Positions 6,234 to 51,191 of a stretch of DNA of 64,000 bases are shown here, in pieces. The notes under the pieces were generated by a model. The model was given only the letters and a program-made list of their open reading frames with translations, ran no database searches and had not been told where the DNA came from. Position 1 is the stretch's first letter. The number at the start of each line of letters is the position of its first letter. This DNA comes from Nitrososphaerota archaeon (GTDB taxonomy: Archaea > Thermoproteota > Nitrososphaeria > Nitrososphaerales > JACPRH01): assembly GCA_023379805.1 (NCBI GenBank), contig JAMCPI010000012.1, forward strand, positions 95,777-159,776. The letters run 5' to 3'. Made by a program: the position numbers and the translations under genes.

Positions 6234-6490
6234 GTTATAATCGCTGCAAGCAAAGGTTCTCAATCGACATATAACTGTTCTTGAATAACAGATGTTACAT
6301 GCATAGAATAGGGGCTCAGCAAAATGTAGCAAACATAAATAGACACTTATGCTTCTATGCCTGCTGATAAATTGGCTGAACCAATTATTCTCGCCCTCGG
6401 TTTTCATCCATGTGAATCAGCAGCATCACCGGCTCATCCTGAAGAATACACAGCTTGCGGTTGATGAGGTGAATAGGCATTACACAGCAC

Positions 6491-8859: not shown

Positions 8860-9255
8860 ATGACCAGCCTGCAAGTTACGGTACTGTCAGGCCGAACGCT
8901 GAGGCAAGGCGTAGGGAAAGAGGCCGGGAAAACCTCTGACCGATACCGCACCGCCGTCTCAGTATGCGAGATGCATCCTGAAGATATTACTGCTCTCTTA
9001 ATCAAGCCGGGTGACTATGTGCGGCTGACTACCGCATACGGTACCGTTGTCTTGAAGAGCGCATCCTCAAACCAGTTCCCCAGAAGAGGCGTAGTGTACA
9101 TTGCCTACGGCCCCTATGCAAACCAACTCTTCGGCCCAGACACTGGCAGCTCCGGCATGCCTACATTCAAAGGCTTAATTGCCACCGTGGAACCAGCTGG
9201 TCCTGAACAGTTCAAGAAGATTGAAGAACTGTTTAACGCAGAGGAGAATATCTAG
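8860..9255 (+). CDS. fwdD: Formylmethanofuran dehydrogenase subunit D
   Basis: 131 aa. Molybdopterin-dinucleotide-binding barrel-like sequence (VTVLSGRTLRQG...MHPEDI...GDYVRL...YGP). Lies immediately upstream of fwdB, fwdA and fwdC. Confidence 0.85.
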   Translation: MTSLQVTVLSGRTLRQGVGKEAGKTSDRYRTAVSVCEMHPEDITALLIKPGDYVRLTTAYGTVVLKSASSNQFPRRGVVYIAYGPYANQLFGPDTGSSGMPTFKGLIATVEPAGPEQFKKIEELFNAEENI

Positions 9256-10560: not shown

Positions 10561-10565
10561 GAGAA

Positions 10566-14933: not shown

Positions 14934-15914
14934 ATGAGTATTAGCGTTAGCGTCAACCGGCACGGCTTGAATGTAGTTAAAGAGGTGATTAACCGCGCTG
15001 ATGAGCTTGCGGTGAGAGTAGAGGAAAACCGCGACGGCACAACACTAATCGACATGGGCGTAGCTGCTAAAGGCGGCTTCCTAGCAGGCAAATATCTAAC
15101 CGATATCTGTCTAGGCGGTCTCGGGCACACGGAGCTAAGTACCGTCGATATCGGCGGCCTGGTGCTCCCATCCATTGTGGTTACGGCTGATCACCCCTCC
15201 ATCTCACTCTTAGGTTCCCAGTTCGCAGGCTGGCAGATTAAGGTCGGAGAAGGCGAGAACCAGTACTTTGCGATGGGCTCCGGTCCGGCTCGAGCTTTGC
15301 CGTTGAAGCCTAAGGAAATCTATCAAGATATCGGGTACAAGGATGGTTTTGATGCCGCGGTCATCGCGTTGGAGACCGATGTGAAGCCCCCGGAGGCTGC
15401 TACGCAGTTCATTGCTCAGAAGTGTGGTGTAGACCCTAAGAACTTGTATGTGGCGTTTGCACCTACTTCAAGTGTAGCCGGCTCTACTCAGATATCTGGT
15501 AGAATCGTTGAAACTGGGCTTCACAAGCTCTACAAGTCCGGTTTCGACCCTAAGAAGGTGCGGAACGGCCTAGGTGAGGCGCCTATTGCGCCTTTACATC
15601 CCAAATCGATTAAGGCGATGGGCCGCACAAACGATATGATTCTTTACGCTGGAAGAGTTTACTTTGAAGTTGAGGCTGAGAATGATGAGGAGTTGAAGAA
15701 AATAGTGCAGGCTACACCTTCATCTGCCTCCAGAGACTACGGCAAACCCTTCTACGATCTCTTCAAAGCAGCTAACTTCGACTTCTACAAGATTGATGAG
15801 CATCTATTCGCTCCCGCGGTCGTCACAGTTAACAACCTCAAAACCGGGCGCATCACCACCGCAGGAAAGGTTAATGAGAAGATACTTCTCCAGTCGATAG
15901 GCTACGCTGATTGA
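14934..15914 (+). CDS. mch: Methenyl-H4MPT cyclohydrolase
   Basis: 326 aa. LIDMGVAAKGGFLAGKYLTDICLGGLG...GSQFAGWQI...YFAMGSGPARAL matches the Mch signature regions. Confidence 0.9.
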   Translation: MSISVSVNRHGLNVVKEVINRADELAVRVEENRDGTTLIDMGVAAKGGFLAGKYLTDICLGGLGHTELSTVDIGGLVLPSIVVTADHPSISLLGSQFAGWQIKVGEGENQYFAMGSGPARALPLKPKEIYQDIGYKDGFDAAVIALETDVKPPEAATQFIAQKCGVDPKNLYVAFAPTSSVAGSTQISGRIVETGLHKLYKSGFDPKKVRNGLGEAPIAPLHPKSIKAMGRTNDMILYAGRVYFEVEAENDEELKKIVQATPSSASRDYGKPFYDLFKAANFDFYKIDEHLFAPAVVTVNNLKTGRITTAGKVNEKILLQSIGYAD

Positions 15915-16816
15915 ATAATAATAGCAGCAAACCTCTGAGAATAGGTCTACTCACAAGAAACCGGGATGCTTGGCCCTCCACCCAGCTAAGAAGAGCCATA
16001 GTTGAGCACAGCGCAGACCCGGTCTGCTTCACCTTCGCAGATATTACAGCGAAGCTTGGAGAAGGCCCCGAAATAGTCATACAGGACAGCATCGATGCCA
16101 TACAGGAGCTTCAAGCGGTGCTAGTTCGACCTATAGGCCGCGGCTCTCTTGACGAGATAATCTTCAGGCTGGATGTTCTCCATCGGCTAGAGCGCGGCGG
16201 AGTCTTCGTAGTAAACCCGCCGTCAAGTATCGAGAAGGCTGTTGACAAGTATCGTGCGCTCTCGCTGCTGGCTGAGCACGGGGTTAAGGTTCCGAAGACG
16301 GTTGTTACAGAGAACCCTGATTCGGCTCTTGAAGGCTTCCGAGCGATGGAGCGTGACGTGGTGATTAAGCCGCTGTTCGGTTCTCAGGGCTTCGGGATAA
16401 CCCGGCTCTCAGATACGGAGGTTACCCGTAGAATCTACAGTGAGCTCAACTACTTCCGTCACGTTCTCTACACGCAGCAGTTCGTTCACCATGGGCGACG
16501 TGATATCCGCTGCTTAGTTATCGGCGGCAGGGTTGCTGCAGCAATGAGTCGGCAGGCGAGGGGCTGGAAGACTAATGTAAGTCAAGGCGCCAAGCCTGTG
16601 CCGCTTAACCCTCCGGCTGAGGTTGAGGAGATTGCGGTGAAATCAGCTGAGGTTTTGGACTGCAGGGTCGCAGGTGTTGATCTTCTAGAGAGCCCCGATG
16701 GGTACTTTGTGAATGAGGTGAATAGTCAACCGGGCTTCCGGGGTCTCCAGTCGGTGACTAAGGTCGATGTCGCCGGAGCGATGGTGAAGTATGTTTTGGA
16801 AGAGCTGAAGCGATGA
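15911..16816 (+). CDS. RimK-family ATP-grasp glutamate ligase (H4MPT:alpha-L-glutamate ligase MptN-like)
   Basis: 301 aa with a TTG start and a 4-nt overlap with mch. RimK-type ATP-grasp blocks (VVIKPLFGSQGFGI, RCLVIGGRV, VAGVDLLES, VNEVNSQPGFRG). Confidence 0.7.
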   Translation: MNNNSSKPLRIGLLTRNRDAWPSTQLRRAIVEHSADPVCFTFADITAKLGEGPEIVIQDSIDAIQELQAVLVRPIGRGSLDEIIFRLDVLHRLERGGVFVVNPPSSIEKAVDKYRALSLLAEHGVKVPKTVVTENPDSALEGFRAMERDVVIKPLFGSQGFGITRLSDTEVTRRIYSELNYFRHVLYTQQFVHHGRRDIRCLVIGGRVAAAMSRQARGWKTNVSQGAKPVPLNPPAEVEEIAVKSAEVLDCRVAGVDLLESPDGYFVNEVNSQPGFRGLQSVTKVDVAGAMVKYVLEELKR

Positions 16817-16856
16817 GTTTGATGGCCGCGGTATTCGTTGTGCTCACCTCAGTACT

Positions 16857-17594
16857 TTACAGACGAACCGTATCAATTTCACGTCGGCTCAGCAGACCAC
16901 GGTGCAACGCCGTAGTAACAAGCACACCTGACGCCCCAGCGTCTCTAAGCGACCGCATGTCGTCAATAGAGGAAACTCCGCCACCCACGAGCAATGGCAG
17001 ATCAACAGCCCCAACAATCGCTTCAACAAGATGCGCGTCTACACCGGTTTCCGAACCAACGCGCGAAAGATCAAGCAGAATCAACTCACCAACTCCACAT
17101 CCCTCAAGTATCCTAGCCGCCTTCACCGGCTTCGCCTCTACAAGTTCACGACATCTAGACAGTACTTTCCCATCCTTAACATCAACAGAACCGGTTGCAC
17201 TCGTACCCCCAACAGCATCGACTACTCTTCCTAGGCTGTCTAGACTGTTCAACGTCTCACTACCGATAACTACCTTTACAGCACCAATCTCCAGAAGCCG
17301 TTCAGCCTCCTCGGGGCTATTTACTCCCGAGTCAACCATGACGCTTAGATCTTTGGTAGCGAAGATCTTGGAGAGAAGAGGCAGGTTCGCTTCTCCCTTG
17401 GTAATTCCGTCCAAATCAGCCGTGTACAGCTCGTCGAAGCCGAACTGTTCCTTAAGTCCTAGTGCAACCTCGACCGGGTCAGAGGCAACGGATAGAGTGC
17501 TTTTCAGGGGGCGGTAGTCTTCACGGTGACCTCCAACCGCATGGACTGCTGTTCCCTGCATGATGTCAATGACGGGGATTACTCTGAAATTCAT
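16857..17594 (-). CDS. HisA/HisF-related TIM-barrel protein (H4MPT/MFR-associated family)
   Basis: 245 aa. VIPVIDIMQGTAVH...LYTADLDGI...VMVDSGV...VVIGSETL...LLDLSRVG...GGGVSS is the HisA/F beta-alpha barrel phosphate-binding pattern. Sits in the C1-cluster context. Confidence 0.7.
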   Translation of the reverse strand: MNFRVIPVIDIMQGTAVHAVGGHREDYRPLKSTLSVASDPVEVALGLKEQFGFDELYTADLDGITKGEANLPLLSKIFATKDLSVMVDSGVNSPEEAERLLEIGAVKVVIGSETLNSLDSLGRVVDAVGGTSATGSVDVKDGKVLSRCRELVEAKPVKAARILEGCGVGELILLDLSRVGSETGVDAHLVEAIVGAVDLPLLVGGGVSSIDDMRSLRDAGASGVLVTTALHRGLLSRREIDTVRL

Positions 17595-17630
17595 TTTCCG
17601 GCCTTTCCTGAACTCTAAGAGGTATTCAGC

Positions 17631-18857
17631 TTGGTGACTGTAAATATATTTGAGTATGCTTCCGGCGGCGGCTTTCGAGGACAGAGGATTCCCCTCAACA
17701 TATTCTGCGAAGGCTACTCAATGTTGAAGAGCGTCGCAGAAGATTTTCATGCAGCAGGATACACTGTTCGCTGTCTTCTGGACTCCCGGGTGGACTCTTT
17801 GCGAAGTGATTTATCGGTGGTTGACGATGTTGTAGAGGTTTCGCCTAATTCCTCTTCTATTCAGGATATTTTCGTCAAGATGCTTCAGCGCTCCGAGTTA
17901 TCGCTGGTGATTGCGCCTGAAACGGGCGGTGTACTCTCATCTCTAATCCGGCTTGTCGAGGAATCTTCTTCAGCTTCACTGAACTCTGCTTCTAAAACAG
18001 CGGATGAGGTTTCAGACAAGGCTTCACTCTCCGAGCTTCTTGGGCGAAACGGCGTAGCTGTGCCTGAAACAAAGTGTTTCTCCACTGAGGACAGTTTGGA
18101 TGAGGTGTTGTCTGCGTATCTGAGGTTCTCGGAGCCAACCGTGGTGGTTAAACCGGTTGATGGAGTCAGCTGCGAGTCCACCTTTCTAGTCTCTAACCGT
18201 GCTGAGATGATTGATGCTTACAAGAATCTTTCCGAGAATAGGGCAGTGAGCCACTTTATCATCCAGCGTTTTGTGGAAGGGCTTCCTGCGAGTGTCAGCC
18301 TTATCTCAAATGGGCGGAATGCTCAGCCTATTGCTCTGAACCTGCAGCGTGTTACGCTGAACCCACCTGGTGCAAAGGTCTCTTCCTATAGGGGTGGCTT
18401 GACTCCGCTGCATCATCCTGACGCGGAGAAGGCCCTACAGGTTGCTCGACGCGCGGTTCAGGTGTTCGGTGGGCTTCGAGGATATGTCGGCGTGGATTTG
18501 GTTTTGTCTCCTAACGGCCCGGTTGTGCTTGAAGTTAATCCTCGTCTAACCGTTTCTTACGTTGGGCTTAGACAAGTGTTAAAGCAGGGTTTAGCTGAAC
18601 CGATGGTGATGGCGGCCCTAAACGGGGTGCTTCCAGCATCTTTCGACACGACAGGCTTCTCAGTCTTCTCTAAACTTCCCCACGGTAGTGCGAAAAATAG
18701 GGTAGCTGTCGGTAGCCGAGTTATGTGCCCGCCAGTTGAAGTTGACGGAGCAAGTTTGGCTGAGACTCTTCTGGTCTCTTGGAGAGAGCGTGAAGATGAG
18801 GCTTTGAGGCTTCTTTCGGCTCAGGAGAGAATGGCTGTGGAGGCTAGTCGAAAGTGA
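17631..18857 (+). CDS. ATP-grasp ligase, candidate tyramine-glutamate ligase (MfnD-like)
   Basis: 408 aa with a TTG start. ATP-grasp_3-like blocks (VVVKPVDGVSCESTFLV, GYVGVDLVLSPNGPVVLEVNPRLT). Followed directly by MfnF-like and MfnE-like genes. Confidence 0.55.
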   Translation: MVTVNIFEYASGGGFRGQRIPLNIFCEGYSMLKSVAEDFHAAGYTVRCLLDSRVDSLRSDLSVVDDVVEVSPNSSSIQDIFVKMLQRSELSLVIAPETGGVLSSLIRLVEESSSASLNSASKTADEVSDKASLSELLGRNGVAVPETKCFSTEDSLDEVLSAYLRFSEPTVVVKPVDGVSCESTFLVSNRAEMIDAYKNLSENRAVSHFIIQRFVEGLPASVSLISNGRNAQPIALNLQRVTLNPPGAKVSSYRGGLTPLHHPDAEKALQVARRAVQVFGGLRGYVGVDLVLSPNGPVVLEVNPRLTVSYVGLRQVLKQGLAEPMVMAALNGVLPASFDTTGFSVFSKLPHGSAKNRVAVGSRVMCPPVEVDGASLAETLLVSWREREDEALRLLSAQERMAVEASRK

Positions 18858-19930
18858 GGATACTTGGTTTGGATGTCGGCGGCGCGAACCTGAAGATAGC
18901 TTGGGTTGAGGTGCTTAAGGGGAGCATAGTGAATTGCCAAACCGCAGTGGAGTATCTTCCTATGTGGCGGGGAGGAAAGGATCGTCTTCCCGCGACTTTA
19001 CGCGAAGTTTCAGATGCGCTCTCTCAAGGTGAGTTGCCTGACGCGATTGGTGTGACGATGACCGCTGAGCTCTCCGATGTCTTTGAGTCGAAGAGAGAGG
19101 GTGTCGAGTACACTTTGCAGTGCGTTCGACAAATCTACAATGGCATCGACCCAATCTTAGTTGTAGATTACAACGGTGAGCTAGGCACTATAAAGGCGGC
19201 CCAGCAGAACCCTCTTCGATATTCGTCAGCTAACTGGGCGGCCACTGCCAAAGTGCTCTCAGGCATCTTCGCTGACTGCCTGCTAATAGACATCGGAAGT
19301 ACCACCACCGACATTATCCCAATTCTAAATCATAGAATCGCTACCGAGGGCAGGACTGATATGGATAGGCTTGCGACAGGTGAGCTAGTTTACACCGGTG
19401 CTCTCAGAAGCGATATTCAATCCATTACTCATGTTCTTCCAGTTAACGGCAGAGAAACGGAGGTTGCTGCTGAGCGGTTCGCTCTCTCCGGAGATGTTCA
19501 CCTTATTCTCGGAAATATCGCGCCTGAAGAGTACTCAACCGAGACCGCCGATGGCCGTGACACTTCACGACAGCGGTGTTTTGCGCGGCTAGCTAGGACT
19601 GTTTGTGCAGAACCGGAGATGATCGGGGAGACTGGTTTGATCAAAATGGTCTCTTACATTTACGATAAGCAGGTGGATAAGATTCATAAGAGATTGACGA
19701 ATGTGTTGAGGCGGCTTAATATTACGCCGCGCGAAGACATGCCTGTTGTAACCACGGGGCTAGGTGGGCTCTTTCTGGGGCGGGAGGCCGCGTATAAATC
19801 GGGTTTCCGACGCTTCTACAGACTTGAACAGATAGTTGGCGGCGAGAACCCGCAGGCCGCCGCCGCGGTTTCAGTGGCTCTTCTTACAGCGGCGGAGATG
19901 GGTGAGATTGTTAAATGGTCTCCGTCCTGA
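18854..19930 (+). CDS. ASKHA/hydantoinase-like protein of the H4MPT-linked C1 family (MfnF-like)
   Basis: 358 aa. N-terminal ILGLDVGGANLKIA sugar-kinase/hydantoinase fold motif and DIGSTTTDIIP. 4-nt overlap with the upstream gene. Confidence 0.65.
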   Translation: MRILGLDVGGANLKIAWVEVLKGSIVNCQTAVEYLPMWRGGKDRLPATLREVSDALSQGELPDAIGVTMTAELSDVFESKREGVEYTLQCVRQIYNGIDPILVVDYNGELGTIKAAQQNPLRYSSANWAATAKVLSGIFADCLLIDIGSTTTDIIPILNHRIATEGRTDMDRLATGELVYTGALRSDIQSITHVLPVNGRETEVAAERFALSGDVHLILGNIAPEEYSTETADGRDTSRQRCFARLARTVCAEPEMIGETGLIKMVSYIYDKQVDKIHKRLTNVLRRLNITPREDMPVVTTGLGGLFLGREAAYKSGFRRFYRLEQIVGGENPQAAAAVSVALLTAAEMGEIVKWSPS

Positions 19931-20586
19931 AGATAGGCGGCAGCCTTCTTAGCTATCCTGAGGCGTTGAGGGCTCTCTGCCAACGTCTAGGCGAACTTGC
20001 TGGTGAACATGATCTGTTGATTGTTCCAGGCGGAGGGCCCTTTGCTGATGCTGTGCGGAAAATATATTCAGAGATGAAGCTGCCTGAAGCTACAGCTCAC
20101 AGGATGGCTGTCTCAGCGATGGATCAGTACGGGATTCTTCTCCAGAGCATTTTAGGAGACTCTTCGCAAGCGATTGAGTACTTTAGTGAGGCAAAAGCAT
20201 GTTTCGAAGAGGGGCAGATAGCTGTTCTTCTGGCTTCACAGGTGATGCGGGCGGACAGGTCGCTTCCCAAGACGTGGGATGTCACCTCAGACTCGATTGC
20301 AGCTTACGTGGCGAGGAAGGTAGATGCTGAAATGCTTGTTCTAGTGAAGTCGGTGGATGGTCTGTTCAAACGGGGCTCGAAGAGGCTTCTGAACAGGGTG
20401 CCTGTGAGCGTCTTGGCTTCCGGGGTTGAACCTGGATGCGTTGATGCGTATCTGCCTGATCTGCTAGCTTCTTCAGGTCGTTTCCGCTGTTTCATCGTGA
20501 ATGGTCGGTATCCGGATCGTGTCGCCGCTGTGCTGCAGAGAGTGGGGGTAGGAGAAGTTGTCGGTACAGAAATCATGCGTAGTTAA
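19915..20586 (+). CDS. Amino-acid-kinase-fold kinase (MfnE-like furan-methyl phosphate kinase)
   Basis: 223 aa. VLKIGGSLL...LIVPGGGPFAD...DVTSDSIAAYVA...LVLVKSVDG is the aspartokinase/UMP-kinase fold pattern. Confidence 0.65.
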   Translation: MVSVLKIGGSLLSYPEALRALCQRLGELAGEHDLLIVPGGGPFADAVRKIYSEMKLPEATAHRMAVSAMDQYGILLQSILGDSSQAIEYFSEAKACFEEGQIAVLLASQVMRADRSLPKTWDVTSDSIAAYVARKVDAEMLVLVKSVDGLFKRGSKRLLNRVPVSVLASGVEPGCVDAYLPDLLASSGRFRCFIVNGRYPDRVAAVLQRVGVGEVVGTEIMRS

Positions 20587-21445
20587 CATTGGTCGAGTCG
20601 GTGGTAGCCGGTATTATGTTGCAGCGCGTAGAAGCAGGTACTGGAGGCCCGGATCTGACTATGCGTCGTTGATTACCGCGAATGTTTCGGGTCGGCTCTC
20701 TGATGGGGATTTTGTGGTTGTCTCAGAGAAGGCTATATCGATCGCTAAAGGCCGGATTGTGGACGAGGCTCAGGTGAAGCCCGGTTTAACCGCCAAGATC
20801 ATTGCTCGCTTTTGGATGCGTTGGATCTGGGGTTACCCGCTTGGGCGGCTCTGCCATATGAGTCAGTCGACGCGGAGCCGGCTTCGACACTACCCTGTCA
20901 AGGAGGGTGCTGCGCACAAGCAGCTCTGTCTCAAGCATGCTGGTATTCTGCAATCTCTTAGACACGGCTCTGAGGGCGGGGTGGATGTGAGTAACCTCCC
21001 ATACTCATACGCTGCTCTTCCGCTTTCTAACCCGCAGGTTGAGGCTGAACATATCCGTGAGCGAATTAGCCGTGAAACTGGGCGGAGGGTTTCGGTGATG
21101 ATTGTGGACACCGATAAGACTTACAGGCTTGGAAGTCGAAACTATACTCCTCTCCCGCGGGCTGTTCCTGGAATTACTGCTGGAGGCGGTTTGCTGATCT
21201 ACGTGGTTTGCAGGGTGTTTCGGTGCAGGAGAAGATCTACGCTGCTAGGTTCTGCTGGCGAGAATCTAGGTGTGGAGACATTGCTGGATATTGCTGAAAC
21301 CGCTAACAGGGCTAGAGGGGTCGGTGCCGGTCGGACGCCGTGGCACATGGCGGAGCGTTTCAATGTTGAGTTAACTAGGGTTACATGGGAGATGCTAGAG
21401 CAAGTGGCTCACTACCCAGTAGTAATCGTGAAACGGTTGAGTTAG
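20558..21445 (+). CDS. CofE-fold gamma-glutamyl ligase-like protein
   Basis: 295 aa with a TTG start. DGDFVVVSEKAISIAKGRIVD, GGVDVSN and RRVSVMIVDTDKTYR...YPVVIVKR parallel the CofE blocks I recall (DGDILVI.E..VSK.EG, NAGID.SN, VGVIITDT...IPVVIIRG). Confidence 0.6.
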   Translation: MSVQKSCVVNIGRVGGSRYYVAARRSRYWRPGSDYASLITANVSGRLSDGDFVVVSEKAISIAKGRIVDEAQVKPGLTAKIIARFWMRWIWGYPLGRLCHMSQSTRSRLRHYPVKEGAAHKQLCLKHAGILQSLRHGSEGGVDVSNLPYSYAALPLSNPQVEAEHIRERISRETGRRVSVMIVDTDKTYRLGSRNYTPLPRAVPGITAGGGLLIYVVCRVFRCRRRSTLLGSAGENLGVETLLDIAETANRARGVGAGRTPWHMAERFNVELTRVTWEMLEQVAHYPVVIVKRLS

Positions 21446-21471: not shown

Positions 21472-22386
21472 TTAGGCTTGGATTTGTTGGACTGCGTCTT
21501 TCAGCCGTATCTGGACTGGTCCGAGTTTTCCGCCGAAGTTTGCGGCTGAAATTTTAACGACTCCGGGTACGCTTGTAGCGGCCTTGATGCCTTTCGCAGT
21601 GGCTTGCATCAGCAGGTCTTGGTCTAGCGCATTGAAGACGATTTCGTAGACGCTGTTTACTTCAGGTGGAACCTGTGTCTCAGGTACTTCGGCGCGTAGC
21701 TTGGGGCAGTAGAGGTGGTTGGTTGAGGCGCCGAGCTTGTATTTTCTTGAGCCTGTCTTCGAGCCGGAGCGGACGATTCCGCCGGGGAACGGCAGGATAA
21801 CTGCTGGGAGCTGCTGAATTGCTTCGACGCTCTTTTCAGCTGCTAACAACGCAGTAGGTTGATCCTTTGCCATGATGAGGAGGTTTCCGCCAGCTATAGC
21901 GTTCTTTATTCCGAATCTTCCTTCAACTAGAAACTCACCCTCCATTACAGGAATACGCCAGATTTTTCGACCGTTCAACACATCCTTCTTCTCAAAGCCG
22001 TCTCCAAACATTCGGATTGCGTCTCCGATGCGGAGTTTGCGGTTGAGTGAGGGAAGTCCATCAAAAGCTGCGGTGGTGGCGCAGGTGAGAATACATTGGC
22101 CTAGACGGGTAATCATCTGACCTTTTAACTCAGGTTTGGTGCGGTGGTAAATCTGAATCATTACTCCGGGTCTTCCATCCGGGGTCTTATCAGCAGGTAT
22201 GCGGGGGCCTTCTATAGCGGCTTCCGCCGGGGACATGATGATCGAGGAGGCGAAGCCGGTGGCAGTTCTAGCTGAGATATCCGCCCACTTTTCGTTCTGA
22301 GCTGTTATCAGGATTCTTCCAGCTACCATTGGAAATGCTTCTGCGAAGGTGTCTTCAATCTCAACGCCGTTGAGCTGCAAGCTCAT
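21472..22386 (-). CDS. ftr: Formylmethanofuran:H4MPT N-formyltransferase
   Basis: 304 aa. NGVEIEDTFAEAFPMVAGRILITA...TATGFASSI...; full-length colinearity with the Ftr family. Confidence 0.9.
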   Translation of the reverse strand: MSLQLNGVEIEDTFAEAFPMVAGRILITAQNEKWADISARTATGFASSIIMSPAEAAIEGPRIPADKTPDGRPGVMIQIYHRTKPELKGQMITRLGQCILTCATTAAFDGLPSLNRKLRIGDAIRMFGDGFEKKDVLNGRKIWRIPVMEGEFLVEGRFGIKNAIAGGNLLIMAKDQPTALLAAEKSVEAIQQLPAVILPFPGGIVRSGSKTGSRKYKLGASTNHLYCPKLRAEVPETQVPPEVNSVYEIVFNALDQDLLMQATAKGIKAATSVPGVVKISAANFGGKLGPVQIRLKDAVQQIQA

Positions 22387-22799: not shown

Positions 22800-23540
22800 T
22801 TAGATTTGTGTTCTTTGGAGGACGTTGACAAACTCTTCTACTAGTCGGTGGTCTATCTTTGGTTCTAGATCTCGCACAGTGCAGACGTTTCGTCTGACTC
22901 CCATAATGTCTACGCCGAGCTTCAGCATTATTCGGAGGTCTTTTTTTCCGAGCGAGCCCGCTAAAGCGATCTTCAAGCCTAGTTGATGTCCTTCCTCTAC
23001 GAAATTTTCGAGATCCTTAACGGACAAGTAGTCAAAGAGTCCCTTCGAGCTCTTCTCTCTCACGTCGATTAGAACCCCCCATGCTCCTGCTTCTGCAGCT
23101 GGTTCAGGTAGCATCAATGGATTTACGCAGCCCTGTAGCTGGTAATCCGCGTACCCAGCTATGACTAGCTTTGTTCTCAGCCGGAACTCCTGCAGTGTCT
23201 GCGCTATTATCCGGGAGAGGTCTCGCGCTTCGTCCGGTGTTTTCGGGCCAAGCATACCCGCTTTGACATAATCTACTCCTAATGAGGCTGCTCCCAGGGC
23301 GGCTAGAGATGCTGTTCCCGGTGTGTTCGGTAGGTCGCCGATGGTTGCGCTTACCTCAGCCTGGTTCCCAGTTTCTTCCTTGATTTTTCTGATCACTAAT
23401 GGTCGGTTTGCGCCGAGTGCTCCTTCACGCGGGTTTTTTACATCAATAATGTCTGCTCCTCCTTTCAGGGCTTCGCGGGCTTCGTCTGGGTTGGTGACGC
23501 TGACCATGATTCTCAGGTGTCCTTCTTCTTGCCTACCCAT
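22800..23540 (-). CDS. mfnB: (5-formylfuran-3-yl)methyl phosphate synthase (MfnB, DUF556)
   Basis: MVSVTNPDEAREALKGGADIIDVKNPREGALGAN matches the MfnB N-terminus. The track ORF starts at 23582, but that ATG abuts the TATA element at 23585-23594, so the M at 23540 (or 23507) is more plausible. Confidence 0.8.
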   Translation of the reverse strand: MGRQEEGHLRIMVSVTNPDEAREALKGGADIIDVKNPREGALGANRPLVIRKIKEETGNQAEVSATIGDLPNTPGTASLAALGAASLGVDYVKAGMLGPKTPDEARDLSRIIAQTLQEFRLRTKLVIAGYADYQLQGCVNPLMLPEPAAEAGAWGVLIDVREKSSKGLFDYLSVKDLENFVEEGHQLGLKIALAGSLGKKDLRIMLKLGVDIMGVRRNVCTVRDLEPKIDHRLVEEFVNVLQRTQI

Positions 23541-23584
23541 TTTTCTCGGCGCCTCGGTGTTGAGCGGTGGTATCTTCGGCAACC

Positions 23585-23594
23585 TTTAAATTAA
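23585..23594. promoter_or_regulatory. Candidate shared TATA element between divergent mfnB and mtd genes
   Basis: TTTAAATTAA in the divergent spacer. It is centred about 30 nt upstream of the mtd ATG (23618; leaderless-compatible) and about 48 nt upstream of the mfnB ATG at 23540 on the other strand. Confidence 0.4.
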
Positions 23595-23617: not shown

Positions 23618-24529
23618 ATGTCATCCGCTAAACGCGTTATGATATTTCTGGACACCGATAAACACGCAAGCCCCTTCGATATTCTCATCCTAGCCGATCT
23701 GTTCCCTGATGCACAGAGCATCTACTATGGGAATGTTGACCCTGAGGATGTGCAGAAGCTCGTTCAAGACTCAATCTTCCCAAGAGGGCCAGAGGGCTGC
23801 AAGAGTACAAAACTCTTCATCGGCGGCTCCGATGTCGATAAAGCTGACAGAATAGCTGAGGTAGCGTTAAAATCAATGTTCCCACCGTTCGAACTTGCAA
23901 CCGTGATTGATCCAAGCGGTTCACACACAACCTCCTCCGCCGCGGTAGCTAAGACACTGCAGATTCTTTTGAAACAGAATCTCGGCGACTTCAAAGGAAA
24001 GAACGTCACAGTCCTAGCTGCCACTGGCCCAGTCGGACAGATCACAAGCGCCATTTACCAGTCAGAAGGCGCAAACGTCACCATCACCTCAAGACGGAAG
24101 GAGCGGGCTGACAGCCTTGTCGAGCGGCTTAACCGAGACTCCCCGAACAAAGTAGCGGGTCTCCAAGCAGCTACTCCAGAAGAGGTAGGTATTGCGATTA
24201 AAGATGCGGACGTGGTGATGGCTGCAGGATCTGCTGGTGTACAGCTTGTTTCACTGGATGTTCTGAAGAGATACGGAACAAAGTGTAAGGTCATAGCGGA
24301 CGTGAATGCGGTTCCACCGCTTGGCGTTGAGAATCTCAGCGCGCAAGGTGATGGCGTTGAGGTGCTGCCCTGTGTCTACGGTGTAGGTGCATTAGCTATA
24401 GGTAACCTGAAGAACAAGGTTGAAGCGAAGCTAATCACAGCCGCTATGGAGTCTCCTAAAGGAGTCTTCAACTACAAGACCGGCTACCAGCTGGCCAAAG
24501 AACACGTCTACAAGAAGCTCGCAAAGTAA
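23618..24529 (+). CDS. mtdB: NAD(P)-dependent methylene-H4MPT dehydrogenase (MtdA/MtdB family)
   Basis: 303 aa. SPFDILI, QDSIFPRGP, LFIGGSD, ADVNAVPPLG and GVGALAIGNLK parallel the MtdB blocks recalled from methylotrophic bacteria. Confidence 0.8.
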   Translation: MSSAKRVMIFLDTDKHASPFDILILADLFPDAQSIYYGNVDPEDVQKLVQDSIFPRGPEGCKSTKLFIGGSDVDKADRIAEVALKSMFPPFELATVIDPSGSHTTSSAAVAKTLQILLKQNLGDFKGKNVTVLAATGPVGQITSAIYQSEGANVTITSRRKERADSLVERLNRDSPNKVAGLQAATPEEVGIAIKDADVVMAAGSAGVQLVSLDVLKRYGTKCKVIADVNAVPPLGVENLSAQGDGVEVLPCVYGVGALAIGNLKNKVEAKLITAAMESPKGVFNYKTGYQLAKEHVYKKLAK

Positions 24530-24563: not shown

Positions 24564-24968
24564 ATGAGATCCGACGATCGCGCTAGAAAGTTCTTCGACC
24601 CCAGGATGACTGATAGAGAGCGAGCTATCTTCGAAGGCGCCGTCGGGCTGGCCTCTATCTATCACCAGTTCGTCGGAACCCCAGTAAGCAAGGATGAGCA
24701 TTCACTTCATGCCGTCGAAGAGGCGATCAAGCTATCGACCCTCCTCCAACCCTACAAGAAGGAAGTCAAAGCAAAACTAAGCATAACAGACGAGCGCCGG
24801 AAAAGACATGCTTACGACTACCGCTCACTCGAGGGACGAGACTTCGACGTATCTATTGTTACTGAGTACGGCAGCTGCCGAGTCACATCCCGCATGAAAT
24901 ACATCCAAGAGCTCGACTACACTCTAATGTTCGTAGAAAAAATCGAGGACACCTGCCAGCGCGAATAG
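24564..24968 (+). CDS. mptD: Archaeal-type dihydroneopterin aldolase (MptD)
   Basis: 134 aa. DRERAIFEGAVGLASIYHQFVGTPVS matches the MptD core motif. The start may be the internal M 14 codons downstream. Confidence 0.7.
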   Translation: MRSDDRARKFFDPRMTDRERAIFEGAVGLASIYHQFVGTPVSKDEHSLHAVEEAIKLSTLLQPYKKEVKAKLSITDERRKRHAYDYRSLEGRDFDVSIVTEYGSCRVTSRMKYIQELDYTLMFVEKIEDTCQRE

Positions 24969-25006: not shown

Positions 25007-25783
25007 CTAGCCAATATCGGCAAGTATTCCCCCGAGCTCCTCTGGAAAAATTCTTTCGAAGCCGGAGATATCCTCTCCTCCGCTAGTCAAGTTGAAGAGA
25101 GTCACCTCAGCTGTAGAAGCAAACCACTCTAGAAGATTTTTACCAATTCTTAACTTGGTGACCTTTACCTTCGGCGACGCTACCTGTGTCTTGGAGAACG
25201 GGCCCACGGTTTCGCCCATATCCATGCCCGCCAGCGCCAAAGGATCTCCTCCTAGGGCGCCGGCGAGGAAGACAGCTCGGTCGCCGTCGGTGAAACCTCC
25301 AAAGTTATGTACTCGACCAACAGGCTCGGTCTGCGTGGTTCCCAAGGCTTTGGAGAAGGTTTTGACGTAACGCTCCAGTTTAGGGATGTTGTCGCCGTGA
25401 GCATGCACCACAATATATGCACCTCTACGCTCTGCTTCTTGGATATCCTCAACCACTCCATCTAAATCAGTAACAACTATGTCCGGGACTTTACCCGCTA
25501 TCTTCAGCAGCGCGGTGGTGGCGCCGTCCGCCGAAATTAGGCAGCATCGGCTTAGAAGGGTGGTCTTCAGGATTCTCTTAAGATCGTTTTCAAGCGAAGG
25601 GCCTGCTCCGAAAATTAACGTGGGCCGCCCGTTGACACGTTGTCTAATATCTTTTAACGGCAACGCTCTATCTTTCAGTAAATCGTCAAGGATAATGGCT
25701 GCTCTCCTGTCTTCGTCCGGATCATATTTTAGTTCCTTCACGATTCTTCGGTACTTTGGCAGCCATTGATCCATTTCCATCAT
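25007..25783 (-). CDS. mptE: 6-hydroxymethyl-7,8-dihydropterin pyrophosphokinase, archaeal type (MptE, DUF115)
   Basis: 258 aa. LIFGAGPSL...ISADGATTALL...PDIVVTDLDG...VVHAHGDN is the MptE pattern. Confidence 0.75.
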   Translation of the reverse strand: MMEMDQWLPKYRRIVKELKYDPDEDRRAAIILDDLLKDRALPLKDIRQRVNGRPTLIFGAGPSLENDLKRILKTTLLSRCCLISADGATTALLKIAGKVPDIVVTDLDGVVEDIQEAERRGAYIVVHAHGDNIPKLERYVKTFSKALGTTQTEPVGRVHNFGGFTDGDRAVFLAGALGGDPLALAGMDMGETVGPFSKTQVASPKVKVTKLRIGKNLLEWFASTAEVTLFNLTSGGEDISGFERIFPEELGGILADIG

Positions 25784-28234: not shown

Positions 28235-29986
28235 ATGAACGCCATATCTACTCGTCTAAAGAGACGTTTTAGTAGCGTCTCTAAGAGAGAGCTTCTGCTT
28301 GTATTGGGTTTGATTTGTCTGCTTCTAGTCGCTGCCTTCTCTAATAGCAGCGGTGCTCCTGTTGCGGCCGGCTCCTTTTTTTCTGCGTATGGTTTGCAGA
28401 CGTACACCTTGACTTTTCAGGGTTACGACTACAACAATAAGGGGGAGGTGTCTGTGCTGGTCAACAACCAGGTTGTAGCTACGCTGCCCACAAGCTATGC
28501 TTCACAGAACGCCAAGACCTTCGTCAGCTTCACACTCGACATCTCAAACTACATAGTATCATCAGGAAGCAACACCATCACATTCCGCCAGAACCAGTAC
28601 TCCTCAGGAGTACAAAACGTAAAAGTCACAGGACCAAACGGAGTACTATTGAGCGACAGCACCTATCGCAGCATGCGGGTAGGCGGTACAGTCTCAGTCA
28701 CTTACAAGTTCAATACTGGCACAACAACCACGACCAGCTCGTCAAGCGGTACCTATACCCTAGCATTCCAGGGCTATGACTATGATAACAAGGGTGAAGT
28801 CTCTATACTTGTGAATAATCAGGTAGCAGCTACTCTACCTACAGTAGAGTCATCTCAAAATAACAATCTGTGGAAGAGCTTCTCACTAGACATATCCAAA
28901 TACGTAGTATCGGGGAGCAACACTATAGTGTTCAAGCAGAACATGTATTCGTCAGGATTACAGAGCGTTAAGGTAACTGGACCAAATGGAGTACTGTTGA
29001 GTGATAACACCTATCATAGCGTAAGGATAGGCGGTACAGTCTCTGTTACGTATAAATTTAGTACTACAACGACTAGCACTACTACAACTTCTACGACACA
29101 GGCCGGGTTTAGGTTTGTCGTCTTGGGCGATAGCCGTAGCAGTGATTCGACTTCGCAGGTGAATACGAAAGTCTTGTCCTCACTCACAAACGTGGCTAAC
29201 GGGCTTAATCCAGCGTTCGCGATATTTAACGGAGACCTCTGTTACAGCTTTACCAGCGGCAGCGACTGTCCAACAATTTGGAAGAACGCTGTGAACCAAA
29301 ATCTGCTTTCCAAGACTGTGTTAGTGCAGGGCAACCGTGATACGGGTTACAACACTAAATGGCAGAGTGCGTTTAAAATGGCCTCGATAATAACGTCATT
29401 CGGTGGAACAGGTTACTCATTCCGCTCAGGGCAGGACAGCATTGATTATTCATTCAATTACAAGAACAGCCATTTCGTCGGAATTGCCGTTTTGAACGGT
29501 GTCAGTTCCAGCAGTCCTAGCTATGACCAGCTAACTTGGCTTGACGCCGACCTTACAAAAGCCGAGAATACAGGATGCGGAGGTCACGGGTGTGCTCTCA
29601 CGTTCATAGCGTTTCACAGTCCTCTCTACTGCGTTTCACCTGATAGCAGCGTCTGTTCTCAGATACAGACCCCCCCATCTAAATGGACAACGATACTCAA
29701 TGCTCATTCATCCGTTGTTGCGGTCTTTAACGCCCATGATCATGTTATCTCATATGTTCACATTAGTAGCAACGAGATAAATGGTGTAAGCTCTAATCAC
29801 GAGTACGAGCAATTCATATCTGGTGCTTCTGGTGCGCCTCCCGCAAGCTGTGGATCTCGATCAGACTGGTGTACCGACGGCAACTTTGGATTCATAACTG
29901 TAAACGTTAGTGGCTCAACAGCTAAGGTTCGCGCATACAATATGTACGGAACATCTCTTCACTCCGAGTGGAGCTTCAGCAGATGA
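28235..29986 (+). CDS. Secreted protein: two tandem copies of an unassigned ~105-aa beta-rich domain + Thr-rich linkers + C-terminal metallophosphoesterase
   Basis: 583 aa with a signal/TM at the N-terminus. Repeats at aa 57-160 and 174-276. Calcineurin-like motifs: FVVLGDSRS, FNGDL, VQGNRD, FHSPLY, NAHDHV. Confidence 0.75.
   Translation: MNAISTRLKRRFSSVSKRELLLVLGLICLLLVAAFSNSSGAPVAAGSFFSAYGLQTYTLTFQGYDYNNKGEVSVLVNNQVVATLPTSYASQNAKTFVSFTLDISNYIVSSGSNTITFRQNQYSSGVQNVKVTGPNGVLLSDSTYRSMRVGGTVSVTYKFNTGTTTTTSSSSGTYTLAFQGYDYDNKGEVSILVNNQVAATLPTVESSQNNNLWKSFSLDISKYVVSGSNTIVFKQNMYSSGLQSVKVTGPNGVLLSDNTYHSVRIGGTVSVTYKFSTTTTSTTTTSTTQAGFRFVVLGDSRSSDSTSQVNTKVLSSLTNVANGLNPAFAIFNGDLCYSFTSGSDCPTIWKNAVNQNLLSKTVLVQGNRDTGYNTKWQSAFKMASIITSFGGTGYSFRSGQDSIDYSFNYKNSHFVGIAVLNGVSSSSPSYDQLTWLDADLTKAENTGCGGHGCALTFIAFHSPLYCVSPDSSVCSQIQTPPSKWTTILNAHSSVVAVFNAHDHVISYVHISSNEINGVSSNHEYEQFISGASGAPPASCGSRSDWCTDGNFGFITVNVSGSTAKVRAYNMYGTSLHSEWSFSR
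28403..29062 (+). repeat. Tandem intragenic domain duplication (period 351 nt)
   Basis: YTLTFQGYDYNNKGEVSVLVNNQVVATLP...VKVTGPNGVLLSDSTYRSMRVGGTVSVTYKF versus YTLAFQGYDYDNKGEVSILVNNQVAATLP...VKVTGPNGVLLSDNTYHSVRIGGTVSVTYKF. Confidence 0.9.
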
Positions 29987-32805: not shown

Positions 32806-32880
32806 GGAGAGGTGGCGGAACGGTTACGCGTTCGCCTGCAGAGCGAATATACGTGGGTTCAACTCCCACCCTCTCCTCCA
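32806..32880 (+). tRNA. tRNA-Cys (GCA), CCA encoded
   Basis: Hand-folded cloverleaf. Acceptor GGAGAGG/CCTCTCC; anticodon stem TTCGC/GCGAA with loop CTGCAGA (anticodon GCA); T arm GTGGG-TTCAACT-CCCAC; discriminator T followed by CCA. Confidence 0.85.
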
Positions 32881-33003
32881 CACGACGCATAAGTGCTTTC
32901 TTCACAACATTGGGTAGTTGTTGAGAATTCTATGTGATTTATTGGTCGTATGGAGACCGTCTTACCCGTCTTTATATCTTGCCACTGTAAAATCGCAACG
33001 AAA

Positions 33004-35127
33004 ATGTTATCCGTAAAATATAGAATAAGCATCTTCGCACTGTTAACAATACTCGCGCTAGGCACATTCGCACCGACACTCGCACTCGCAGCACCTCTCG
33101 CCAACAACGGCAAAGACTGGGAATACGTAAACGGTAACTCTTGGGGCTGGAATTACAGTCCACAAACACAGATAAACAAGGATAATGTAAAGAATCTTGA
33201 AGTGAAATGGATCTTCCCTGTTGGAAGCAAGACACTTGCACCAGCAGCAATGCAAACGGTCGCTTTGACAGAGGGTGCACAAACACCACCAATTGTCAGA
33301 AACGGCATAGTCTACATCACAACCAACTTCCTCAAGACCTATGCCATAGACGGCAAGACCGGTAAACAGGTCTGGACATACGACTATACCTTCGATCCCA
33401 ATGCCACTGCTAGTAAGCTACCTTGGGTCTTCGGTATGCTCGGCTCACACCTGCACGGCTTCAGGTACTGGGAAGGCGGAAACGCACTGCTATTCAACGG
33501 AATGGCATGTGATGTTTATGCAGTAGACGCCTCGACCGGTAAGGAAGCATTCAGAATCCAGGATCTGTGCAAAGATGTTCCCGGAAACCTCTACAAGTAT
33601 AGACCAACACCAACAGATACATCGTCTATAGGAACATATGAGAAAGGCAAGCTGTTCATCACAGTCCTTCCAGGCATGATACACTCTAATATCTGGTATG
33701 GAGACGCACGCCACGTCACAATGGGTATCAACATGGATACCAAGCAAGTTGTGTGGAGAGTATTCAGCTTCCCACCGCACGGAGTACCTGCTAAAGACTG
33801 GGCTACTCAGGAATGCGACATTGGATACTTCGAATCTATTCCATGCAAAGACGTAGCGGCCAAGAACCCGAAGGGACTTGAATGGGACTGGGCAATGCCT
33901 GGTCAAGCACCAAGCCCCTACGGTGGTGTCACAGCTAACTGGGGCCAGCAAATAGTTGATGAAGATACAGGCATCATGTACACCAACACAGGTAACCAAG
34001 GACCTTTCACAAACCTCTCCCTAACACCTGGACCACGTCTATACGGCTCAACCATTATGGCTATTGACCTAACTCAGGGCAAGCGCATATGGTGGATGCA
34101 ACCATTCCCGCATGATCCGTATGACTATGACTGCAACTGGGGTGGAATACTAGCTGAAGTCAAGGGTCTGGGCAAGGTCTACATGAAGGGATGTAAGGAA
34201 GGCTTTCTTAACATCCTTGACGCAAGGACTGGTAAACCAATACAAAGGATAGACGTGACACAAGAACAGATGGCGCTCGGACAAGTAACTCAAGCAGCTG
34301 CTACAGAACCATATCAGGGCAAGGGCGGTGTCAGATACCACCTAACAGATCCAATGAGTGAATATGATCTCAGGGAATGGGGCTGGCCTGACAACGGCAA
34401 ATACGCTCCTTCACCATCAATACTCTACCCATCATATCTCAACGGAGTCTTCGCAACAGATCTATCATACGATCCTGACTCACAAACAGTAATCCACTAC
34501 GCAAACGCACTGATGATTGGATACAGGTCGCTTCCCATAGAAGTAGGAAAGAGCAACGTGGGTCCAGGACCTAAAGGAATGGCTGAGACTGCAAACACCA
34601 CTATTATTGCTCGTGACGTAGCTACCGGCAAAATCAAGTGGTCATGGTTCTACAAGACAAGTGCACAAAGAGCAGCTATAGTTGTAACCGGAGGAATGGT
34701 GTTCAGCGGCTTCACTGACGGAACAGTAAAGTTCCTAGACAAAGACAAGGGAACACTGCTAAACACCGTCAACGTAGGCTCAGGAGTAGTAGTAGCTCCA
34801 ACAATAGGTGCTGACTCTGACGGCAACCAGAAGATATTCCTCATAGCAGGGTCAACTAGCATCGTGGGCGCATTCGCAGGCCCAGGCTTCAACAACCTAG
34901 GCGCAATGGTACCAGGCACACTAGTAGCAGTAGGACTTAGCGAGAAGTCTACAGGCGGAGCAGTCACACAACCCACTACATCAACCACTACAACAACCAC
35001 CACAACAACCTCGATCCGCACCGTGGAAGTCTCATCAGGACTACCTGCAGAAGTAACCTACGCAGCAGTCGGAGTAGCAGTAATAGCAATCATCGGCGCA
35101 GCAGTACTCGTAATGCGGAAGAAGTAG
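33004..35127 (+). CDS. Exported PQQ-type eight-bladed beta-propeller dehydrogenase (methanol/ethanol family-like), Thr-linker + C-terminal TM anchor
   Basis: Signal peptide from ATG 33004 (MLSVKYRISIFALLTILALGTFAPTLALA). Repeated propeller motifs (TPPIVRNGIVYITT, AIDGKTGKQVW, AVDASTGKE, ARDVATGKIKW). T13 linker and a hydrophobic C-terminal helix ending in RKK. The vicinal Cys-Cys of classical MDH/ADH is not evident. Confidence 0.8.
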   Translation: MLSVKYRISIFALLTILALGTFAPTLALAAPLANNGKDWEYVNGNSWGWNYSPQTQINKDNVKNLEVKWIFPVGSKTLAPAAMQTVALTEGAQTPPIVRNGIVYITTNFLKTYAIDGKTGKQVWTYDYTFDPNATASKLPWVFGMLGSHLHGFRYWEGGNALLFNGMACDVYAVDASTGKEAFRIQDLCKDVPGNLYKYRPTPTDTSSIGTYEKGKLFITVLPGMIHSNIWYGDARHVTMGINMDTKQVVWRVFSFPPHGVPAKDWATQECDIGYFESIPCKDVAAKNPKGLEWDWAMPGQAPSPYGGVTANWGQQIVDEDTGIMYTNTGNQGPFTNLSLTPGPRLYGSTIMAIDLTQGKRIWWMQPFPHDPYDYDCNWGGILAEVKGLGKVYMKGCKEGFLNILDARTGKPIQRIDVTQEQMALGQVTQAAATEPYQGKGGVRYHLTDPMSEYDLREWGWPDNGKYAPSPSILYPSYLNGVFATDLSYDPDSQTVIHYANALMIGYRSLPIEVGKSNVGPGPKGMAETANTTIIARDVATGKIKWSWFYKTSAQRAAIVVTGGMVFSGFTDGTVKFLDKDKGTLLNTVNVGSGVVVAPTIGADSDGNQKIFLIAGSTSIVGAFAGPGFNNLGAMVPGTLVAVGLSEKSTGGAVTQPTTSTTTTTTTTTSIRTVEVSSGLPAEVTYAAVGVAVIAIIGAAVLVMRKK

Positions 35128-49459: not shown

Positions 49460-49497
49460 CTTTACTTGTTCAGTCTCCGCTCCGGTTGTTGTTCGTC

Positions 49498-50649: not shown

Positions 50650-50658
50650 ATCTTGCTT

Positions 50659-51189: not shown

Positions 51190-51191
51190 CG

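Follow-up and report, generated by a model that had tools for sequence, protein, structure and literature searches.

A predicted NADP-dependent methylene-tetrahydromethanopterin dehydrogenase from an archaeal branch of the MtdA/MtdB family, encoded in a one-carbon gene module of a Nitrososphaerota archaeon

The 64-kb stretch of a Nitrososphaerota genome analyzed here (contig JAMCPI010000012.1; the whole stretch is referred to as the window) contains at positions 23618-24529, on the forward strand, a gene that we refer to as the Mtd gene. Its 303-amino-acid (aa) product is probably an NADP-linked methylene-tetrahydromethanopterin (methylene-H4MPT) dehydrogenase of an archaeal clade, acting within a one-carbon (C1) module built on H4MPT and methanofuran. 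By its motifs, domain content and predicted fold the protein is assigned to the MtdA/MtdB/MtdC superfamily of pyridine-nucleotide methylene-H4MPT dehydrogenases, and a tree places it on an archaeal branch of this group, apart from the MtdA and MtdB enzymes of bacteria. The predicted reaction is methylene-H4MPT + NADP+ <-> methenyl-H4MPT + NADPH, and the enzyme would most likely fill the slot held in methanogens by the F420-dependent Mtd (F420-Mtd) or by Hmd. The module as a whole would comprise a redox-type formylmethanofuran dehydrogenase (Fwd), Ftr, Mch, Mtd and a Mer of the F420 family, in a host that is predicted to be a non-ammonia-oxidising member of the Nitrososphaerota.

The open reading frame (ORF) of the Mtd gene is intact, with an ATG at 23618 and a stop codon ending at 24529, and the product is identical to GenBank MCL4436245.1 and MCL5318710.1, 'methylenetetrahydromethanopterin dehydrogenase [Thaumarchaeota / Nitrososphaerota archaeon]'. 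An original prediction, made from the DNA sequence without database searches, had recognized four blocks of MtdA/MtdB type in the protein, and all four can be located: SPFD at aa 18, QDSIFPRGP at aa 50, ADVNAVPP at aa 227 and GVGALAIGN at aa 255. In addition, a dinucleotide-binding motif of the GxGxxG type, ATGPVG (aa 135-140), aligns with the GTGPVG of MtdA. A Pfam search places Mpt_N (PF09176), the N-terminal, pterin-binding domain of this enzyme type, at aa 33-100; the score is 71.9 bits where 27 would suffice (E=5e-20), and phmmer aligns the protein end to end (aa 4-302) with Methylorubrum extorquens MtdA (PDB 1LU9, 6TGE and 6TLK; E=4e-45 to 5e-44). An AlphaFold2 model built with 28 homologues (mean predicted local distance difference test score, pLDDT, 94.5) has its best Foldseek matches in the PDB with MtdA (6TLK and 1LU9; template modelling (TM) score 0.88-0.93, root-mean-square deviation 2.1-2.2 Å), and the next fold, that of shikimate dehydrogenase and its relatives, follows at a TM score of no more than 0.57. 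Taken together, the blocks, the Pfam score, the whole-length alignment and the fold place the resemblance to MtdA/MtdB beyond chance. Neither F420-Mtd nor Hmd is found among the top 50 Foldseek PDB matches of the model or among the Pfam matches of the protein, and no scanned ORF in the window (the annotation took in 56 of 57 non-overlapping ORFs with a length of 90 aa or more) matches F420-Mtd (PF01993) or Hmd; the view that the protein is neither of these methanogen enzymes is thus upheld by Pfam, PDB sequence and fold comparisons alike. The gene is under strong purifying selection, with pN/pS=0.14 relative to its orthologue on another Nitrososphaerota contig (L004) and a nominal dN/dS of ~0.03, dS being near saturation.

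The database searched contains more than 4,000 homologues of the Mtd protein. The closest are proteins from metagenome-assembled genomes (MAGs) of Thaumarchaeota/Nitrososphaerota, at 96% and then 75-83% identity, and these include marine sequences from Tara Oceans that are ~77% identical to the window protein; the next set, at 54-61% identity, has named members that are mostly Bathyarchaeota/Bathyarchaeia. An exhaustive search of 50%-identity representatives yields 877 clusters at E<=1e-3, of which 103 reach E<=1e-30, and a scan of one genome per GTDB species finds at least 591 relatives. Their archaeal hosts include Nitrososphaerota (82% identity), Bathyarchaeia (two groups, at ~50-55% and ~40%), Vulcanisaeta, Thermofilaceae, Hadarchaeota, Ca. 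Methanolliviera, a Halobacteriota MAG, the Asgard archaeon Ca. Borrarchaeum and Altiarchaeales; the bacterial hosts, whose proteins share 34-45% identity, include Chloroflexi, Methylomirabilota, Longimicrobiales and proteobacterial methylotrophs.

A neighbour-joining tree of 79 sequences (200 bootstraps) gives support for clades, with the deep branching order not resolved. MtdB was represented by genes identified through synteny (mptG, mtdB, ATP-grasp, mch, fae) in Azoarcus (L001) and Paraburkholderia (L002), and MtdA by the PDB entry and a Methylobacterium bullatum gene that is directly followed by an fch-like ORF. In the tree, a clade with 98% support unites the window protein with the proteins of Nitrososphaerota, Bathyarchaeia group 1, Vulcanisaeta and other Thermoproteota, and a natural fusion protein (P0121) described below. 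It lies outside both the MtdA clade (94%) and the proteobacterial MtdB clade (99%), and is about equally far from MtdA (~35-38% identity) and MtdB (34-39%), with 35% and 37-38%, respectively, in one direct comparison. The original prediction had called the protein 'bacterial-methylotroph-type'; given the archaeal clade, the separate MtdA and MtdB clades and a gene neighborhood that lacks Fae and fch and in which Ftr and FwdB are closer to archaeal homologues (see below), this is a misnomer.

Several members of the family have unusual structures or arrangements. Many of the homologues in Bathyarchaeia group 2 and Hadarchaeota (P0126, P0130, P0132, P0137, P0143, P0145, P0148 and others; loci L024, L029, L038 and L039) are 550-580 aa long, and their extra N-terminal domain of ~250 aa has no sequence match in Pfam, NCBIfam or the PDB. 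P0219 (484 aa), a member of the MtdA clade, is fused at its N-terminus to a DUF447 domain (PF04289/PF20766). In MAGs of gammaproteobacterial methanotrophs (Methylococcaceae/Methylobacter) there are two tandem Mtd-family paralogues 30-1000 nt apart (L045, L047, L053, L056, L057, L062, L063, L072, L078 and L080-L082), and the two copies of each of three methanotroph pairs that were sampled belong to different sub-branches within the 99% clade that contains the MtdB references. Some public names are misleading, in that P0090 of Bathyarchaeota BA1 is named 'glutamyl-tRNA reductase' and P0124 'precorrin-6B methylase 2'.

The two bacterial enzymes differ in their substrates, MtdA being an NADP-dependent methylene-H4MPT/methylene-tetrahydrofolate dehydrogenase and MtdB an NAD(P)-dependent, H4MPT-specific one, and the window protein combines features of each. 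With MtdA of M. extorquens AM1 (NADP; 1LU9, 1LUA, 6TGE, 6TLK) it shares the two-domain fold, the GxGxxG motif, the D-x-N-A-x-P-P and G-A-L-x-I-G blocks, and an (S/G)-R-(K/R) loop at the end of strand beta2. In this loop the window sequence VTITS-R159-R160-KER aligns with VVLCG-R152-K153-LDK of MtdA, such that R159 and R160 lie over R152 and K153, and no acidic residue closes beta2. The TSR of the loop (T157-S-R159-R160-K161) is invariant or nearly so in the clade of the window protein. From the general Rossmann rule and the MtdA structure, R152 and K153 presumably contact the 2'-phosphate of NADP, and the Arg-containing loop together with the lack of an acidic beta2 end therefore indicates that the window enzyme probably prefers NADP(H). 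The MtdB references have instead a His-containing beta2 loop with a one-residue insertion (LLGH-HAKL and TIAS-HSDA), as do many members of the MtdB clade, and the window loop (TITS-RRK-ER) lacks both features. Several other clades, including many of the 550-580-aa proteins, have acidic beta2 ends ('VETW', 'VD' or 'IAD') of a kind characteristic of NAD-binding proteins, and the 'VETW' of several of these long homologues suggests a use of NAD rather than NADP. On the pterin side the relationships are reversed: the window has SPFD, QDSIFPRGP and PPFE, as against SVFD, GTIYTRGG and GPFR in MtdA, and proteobacterial MtdB (L001, L002) has SPFD, QDAIFSRGP and PPFE. These MtdB-like motifs and the flanking genes for H4MPT and methanofuran biosynthesis make H4MPT the likely pterin substrate.

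The gene contexts differ in parallel. Unlike MtdA, which belongs to another clade, has other pterin motifs and comes from a bacterial host, the archaeal gene is flanked by MfnB and MptD genes; it has no fch beside it, and the window shows nothing of a folate pathway. It resembles mtdB in lying in an H4MPT gene cluster near mch and an ATP-grasp gene, but the bacterial loci commonly have fae and mptG beside mtdB and the window has neither. The similarity is greatest with the homologues of Bathyarchaeia, Thermoproteota, Vulcanisaeta and other Nitrososphaerota, which share the 98% clade, 50-96% identity, the TSR loop and Ftr/FwdDBAC/Mch neighbors; they differ in nothing essential except that most of the described hosts are anaerobic archaea of sediments and hot springs, whereas the window also carries genes for heme synthesis and a pyrroloquinoline quinone (PQQ) dehydrogenase. 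F420-Mtd and Hmd of methanogens catalyze the same pathway step but are unrelated in sequence and fold, with F420 or H2 as the carrier where NADP is predicted here.

The genes surrounding Mtd make up a complete C1 module of the H4MPT/methanofuran type. The formylmethanofuran dehydrogenase genes form a rightwards-transcribed set at 8860-13115 (fwdD 8860-9255, fwdB 9256-10560, fwdA 10566-12275 and fwdC 12276-13115), and FwdB scores 464 bits to Methanothermobacter wolfeii FwdB (5T5I_B), whereas its match to the hydrolytic subunit of M. extorquens, which is of the Fhc type (6S6Y_B), reaches only 41 bits. The cysteine corresponding to the metal ligand Cys118 of 5T5I is conserved, as are the Fe-S cysteines near the N-terminus, and FwdDBAC is accordingly classed on its sequence as the redox-active type and not as Fhc. 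The methenyl-H4MPT cyclohydrolase Mch is encoded at 14934-15914 (+; PF02289, 414 bits), and the formylmethanofuran:H4MPT formyltransferase Ftr at 21472-22386 (-; PF01913 and PF02741). Between them lies a cofactor-biosynthesis block (15911-21445) with an MptN-like ATP-grasp protein (15911-16816, +), a HisA/F-related protein (16857-17594, -), an MfnD-like ATP-grasp protein (17631-18857, +), a hydantoinase-like TIGR03123/MfnF-like protein (18854-19930, +), an MfnE-like, amino-acid-kinase-like protein (19915-20586, +) and a CofE-like protein below its cutoff (20558-21445, +); apart from this last gene, none for F420 biosynthesis was identified in the window. At the left end, a dihydropteroate synthase (DHPS)-like protein (2745-4313, +; TIGR00284, 377.7 bits, with pterin-binding and DUF4346 domains) likely also acts in H4MPT biosynthesis.

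Immediately to the left of Mtd and divergent from it is MfnB (22800-23582, -), the 4-HFC-P synthase of methanofuran biosynthesis, whose listed TTG start is probably too far upstream, the Pfam match beginning at aa 26. The short spacer between the two genes contains a TATA-like sequence, TTTAAATT (23585-23592, +), 26-33 nt 5' of the Mtd ATG; this was picked out by reading the sequence and would fit a putative archaeal promoter, from which an mRNA with a short leader or none would be made. A scan for sigma-70 promoters and terminators gave a background level of matches, under a model that is irrelevant to an archaeal host. To the right, 34 nt 3' of the Mtd stop codon, is an MptD-like gene for an archaeal-type dihydroneopterin aldolase (24564-24968, +), which is probably co-transcribed with Mtd, and beyond it a gene for an MptE-like 6-hydroxymethyl-dihydropterin diphosphokinase (25007-25783, -). 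Ftr, Mch, FwdDBAC and the Mpt/Mfn biosynthesis genes thus all lie within 15 kb of Mtd. The order MfnB-Mtd-MptD-MptE is the same on contig L004, where Mtd is 82% identical, and at least 12 loci of Bathyarchaeia, Thermofilaceae and Thermoproteota have the archaeal Mtd orthologue as a neighbor of Ftr, FwdDBAC and/or Mch. The window Ftr is 56-61% identical to archaeal and 44-51% to bacterial homologues, and for FwdB the identity is 46-51% with its archaeal counterparts but 22-28% with FhcB of proteobacteria. A tblastn search with two bacterial Fae proteins found none in the window or in the archaeal Mtd loci; in many bacterial loci, by contrast, Fae is encoded next to the gene or a short distance away.

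We note that the segment 16857-20586 (HisA/F-related gene on the minus strand, ATP-grasp, TIGR03123 and kinase genes) has largely the same order and orientation in proteobacterial methylotroph loci (L046, L060, L065 and L069), although the kinase-like gene was detected in L065 only. The shared order is consistent with a common origin of the cofactor-biosynthesis cluster in the archaeon and the methylotrophs.

The next step of the pathway would fall to a leftwards-transcribed gene at 4316-5257. Its product was originally described as a Mer-like member of the F420/luciferase family, and this holds: it has a Bac_luciferase domain (Pfam, E=1e-49) with a luciferase-like TIM barrel, and the best-matching solved structures are all F420-dependent Mer (1Z69, 8QPL/8QPM/8QQ8, 1F07 and 1EZW; ~215 bits, while F420 enzymes of other kinds within the family score ~56 bits). 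The GenBank version, MCL4436227.1, starts at an internal ATG (4316-5242, 308 aa); it is on the same GenBank contig as MCL4436245.1 and 18 accession numbers away, which equals the gene count in the window. Evidence from outside the window bears on the partnership with Mtd. P0121 (647 aa; L084 2703-4646, contig CAZJUU010000011.1) is a natural fusion of an N-terminal archaeal-type Mtd and a C-terminal Mer, and is the nearest representative outside the window protein's own cluster (55% identity; three members in its cluster, 640-665 aa). Its Mtd half carries Mpt_N, and its Mer half, which is 35% identical to the window Mer-like protein, exceeds both curated Mer cutoffs (455 bits; TIGR03555 447.6 against a cutoff of 348.7). 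The gene is adjacent to one for an FrhB/FdhB-family protein and also has NiFe-hydrogenase subunit and glycine-cleavage P-protein genes as neighbors. The proposed pairing of an NAD(P)-linked Mtd with an F420-linked Mer is therefore supported as a predicted general property of the archaeal clade, and falls short of proof for the window organism, whose Mer-like protein is atypical.

Several points weigh against the reading of Mtd and its neighbors as an NADP- and F420-linked C1 pathway, and the first group concerns this Mer-like protein. It exceeds the NF002619 cutoff by just 3 bits (279 against 276) and is below that of TIGR03555 (263.1 against 348.7), its PGAP name is simply 'LLM class flavin-dependent oxidoreductase', and its gene is 19 kb from Mtd. 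The architecture is also incomplete, a hairpin segment of 22-27 residues being missing after ~aa 134 (codons ~130-137). The loss is common to relatives at 70-100% identity, and the segment is present in the solved structures and in every Mer at 59% identity or less, those of Nitrososphaerales and Bathyarchaeia included. Relatives at 70-84% identity share the deletion, which is thus not an assembly artefact, and this lineage-specific shortening accounts for the score below the TIGR03555 cutoff. A second group of points concerns Mtd and the pathway. The NADP specificity is predicted by a sequence rule and not from a liganded structure; in the literature searched we found no published account of the MtdA cofactor-site residues, and the call is made from the alignment and the Rossmann rule. 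No assayed member of the archaeal clade was found, such that substrate, cofactor and direction are predictions, and a canonical F420-Mtd could lie elsewhere in the genome, the scan having covered the 64-kb window of a 461-kb contig. Among the annotated ORFs of the window there is none for Fae, carbon monoxide dehydrogenase/acetyl-CoA synthase (CODH/ACS), Mtr or a terminal oxidase that would mark the source or sink of C1 units. Finally, the protein has close homologues in anaerobic Bathyarchaeia, for which a reductive use of the pathway is presumed, and the direction is therefore not readable from the enzyme type alone.

As to that direction, the methenyl/methylene-H4MPT couple is at about -390 mV and NADP at -320 mV, so that oxidation is favored by ~13 kJ/mol, as in methylotrophic bacteria, and with F420 as the carrier the step is near equilibrium. 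The gap of ~70 mV, together with the redox-type Fwd and hints of a respiratory lifestyle in the window (heme pathway, PQQ dehydrogenase and MsrAB), leads us to favor an oxidative or amphibolic flux in which net C1 oxidation to CO2 would yield NADPH. The original prediction had proposed that a mixture of NAD(P) and F420 redox steps changes the energetics and likely direction of the pathway; the mixture is retained at the level of the two enzyme families, although it is not peculiar to this window, and the argument for direction is one of thermodynamics alone.

A more far-reaching interpretation may be entertained tentatively, and we think it on balance doubtful. The archaeal clade might constitute a functionally distinct fourth class, with an MtdB-like H4MPT site and an MtdA-like NADP site, that replaces F420-Mtd throughout the non-methanogenic archaea that use H4MPT and operates as a unit with F420-Mer, fused to it in some lineages. 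In the organism studied here it would drive the aerobic conversion of C1 units to CO2 via redox-type Fwd and without Fae, as an archaeal counterpart of the formaldehyde oxidation of methylotrophs, and the shortened Mer would be a lineage adaptation.

Among the alternatives, the one that survives best keeps the chemistry and changes the role. The enzyme could serve anabolic C1 interconversion, supplying methenyl- and formyl-H4MPT for purines and other products from methylene-H4MPT derived from serine or glycine, with Mer supplying methyl groups, for example for methionine. The Mtd gene is indeed set among cofactor-biosynthesis and not catabolic genes, the absence of Fae, CODH/ACS and Mtr from the window agrees with such a role, NADP(H) is the typical anabolic cofactor, and the glycine-cleavage P-protein genes near the Mtd-Mer fusion in L084 point the same way. 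However, a complete redox-type FwdDBAC with Ftr and Mch exceeds the biosynthetic need and would permit full C1 oxidation or CO2 reduction. We regard a purely anabolic role as possible although unlikely; it and the assignment as an NADP-linked dehydrogenase of the C1 module can both hold, and the present data do not separate them.

A very improbable alternative is that the gene is a horizontally acquired MtdB (or MtdA) of a bacterial methylotroph and acts together with Fae to oxidize formaldehyde, in the manner of Methylobacterium. It has in its favor the MtdB-like pterin motifs (SPFD, QD-IF-RGP, PPFE), the 34-39% identity to MtdB, the synteny of the HisA/F-like, ATP-grasp, hydantoinase-like and amino-acid-kinase genes with the methylotroph loci, and the presence of a PQQ dehydrogenase gene 8 kb from Mtd. 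Against this, the protein is inside the 98% archaeal clade and outside those of MtdB and MtdA, its identity to the two is equally low, and its beta2 loop is MtdA-like and not MtdB-like; Fae is lacking both from the window and from beside the archaeal orthologues, Ftr, Mch and FwdB resemble archaeal homologues more closely (FwdB being moreover of the redox type), and the PQQ enzyme reaches only ~70 bits to any quinoprotein alcohol dehydrogenase.

It is also hardly to be expected that the archaeal clade has switched to an F420/deazaflavin cofactor on the MtdA fold, giving an all-F420 pathway as in methanogens. Some relatives do have matches to PF03807 ('F420_oxidored'), and an FrhB-family F420-binding protein is encoded next to the Mtd-Mer fusion. 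The PF03807 matches are, however, weak and located on the Rossmann domain alongside those to other dinucleotide-binding models (this family covers the NADP-binding domain of Fno), the FrhB neighbor can just as well be put down to the Mer half of the fusion, and the GxGxxG motif and Arg-rich loop are conserved exactly as in NADP-bound MtdA. Least credible of all is a Rossmann dehydrogenase of other specificity, akin to glutamyl-tRNA reductase, shikimate dehydrogenase or FolD, for although there are matches to hemA, aroE, THF_DHG_CYH_C and short-chain dehydrogenase/reductase (SDR) models at aa 105-230 and homologues such as P0090 and P0124 have names of this kind, the scores are 16-27 bits against cutoffs of 200-430 (~20-27 bits for hemA and aroE, with cutoffs >200) and cover the nucleotide-binding half only. 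Against such a reading stand the specific evidence of the Mpt_N domain, of the whole-length alignment to MtdA and of the matching fold, the conserved synteny of the H4MPT pathway, and a genuine HemA encoded elsewhere in the window. The best profile matches thus do not fall to an unrelated Rossmann family, which had been named at the outset as the outcome that would tell against an MtdA/MtdB assignment. NCBIfam has no MtdA/B model, which is why the hemA, aroE and SDR matches come up at all, and these identities were rejected as Rossmann noise.

The remainder of the window contains markers that indicate a TACK archaeon, namely a CdvA-like protein, a PEP carboxylase of archaeal type, a deoxyhypusine synthase, TRASH-domain regulators of the Lrp/AsnC family and the Ahb heme pathway. 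The last of these is encoded in a contiguous, leftwards-transcribed tetrapyrrole cluster (48365-56950) containing HemA (55574-56950), which is a bona fide glutamyl-tRNA reductase, HemL, HemC, SUMT, a HemD fusion, a second AhbA/B-like protein and two radical-SAM/SPASM proteins (AhbC/D-like); in the fusion, HemD is joined to an AhbA/B-like (NirD/L-type) domain (51192-52526). The cluster is assigned by its gene content to the siroheme-dependent alternative heme pathway. Just 3' of a tRNA-Cys gene (32806-32880) is the gene for the 725-aa PQQ beta-propeller dehydrogenase (32950-35127, +); we do not claim this as a methanol dehydrogenase (XoxF/MxaF), its matches to any quinoprotein alcohol dehydrogenase being at ~50-73 bits. 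A peptidase A4 (scytalidoglutamic-type) family protein (5463-6407, -) and a subtilase (35630-37570, +) are possibly secreted proteases, which would be consistent with heterotrophy. Three rightwards-transcribed ORFs, 1542-2660, 7577-8638 and 28235-29986 (372, 353 and 583 aa), have no Pfam match at E<=1e-4, and the second of these lies between the Mer-like gene and the fwd operon.

The Mtd gene is ordinary for its lineage, and its family is widespread and its function already annotated in GenBank; database names for hundreds of archaeal homologues are 'Mpt_N domain-containing protein' or 'methylene-H4MPT dehydrogenase'. Genes of an H4MPT-type Wood-Ljungdahl pathway are mentioned for Thaumarchaeota that do not oxidize ammonia (PMC10773090), and a preprint on marine basal Thaumarchaeota writes 'F420-dependent mtd'. 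We found no open-access paper explicitly on an MtdA/B-type enzyme in archaea. A study by Adam et al. (2019, Nat Microbiol) on the evolution of the H4MPT branch is said to have surveyed such enzymes across archaea and bacteria. What is added here is modest: the occurrence in one clade of an MtdA-like NADP loop together with MtdB-like pterin motifs, the natural Mtd-Mer fusions, and the shortened Mer of the window lineage.

The type of Mtd matters in that it decides which electron carrier is coupled to the methenyl/methylene step at -390 mV. When the metabolism of Bathyarchaeia, Thaumarchaeota and other uncultured archaea is reconstructed, the enzyme is usually entered as a generic 'Mtd', and recognition of an MtdA/B-type enzyme alters both the electron bookkeeping and the plausibility of reductive as compared with oxidative flux. 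The practical gain is a modest one, namely the correction of misnamed homologues and a well-defined 303-aa candidate, easy to express, for the first biochemistry of the archaeal clade.

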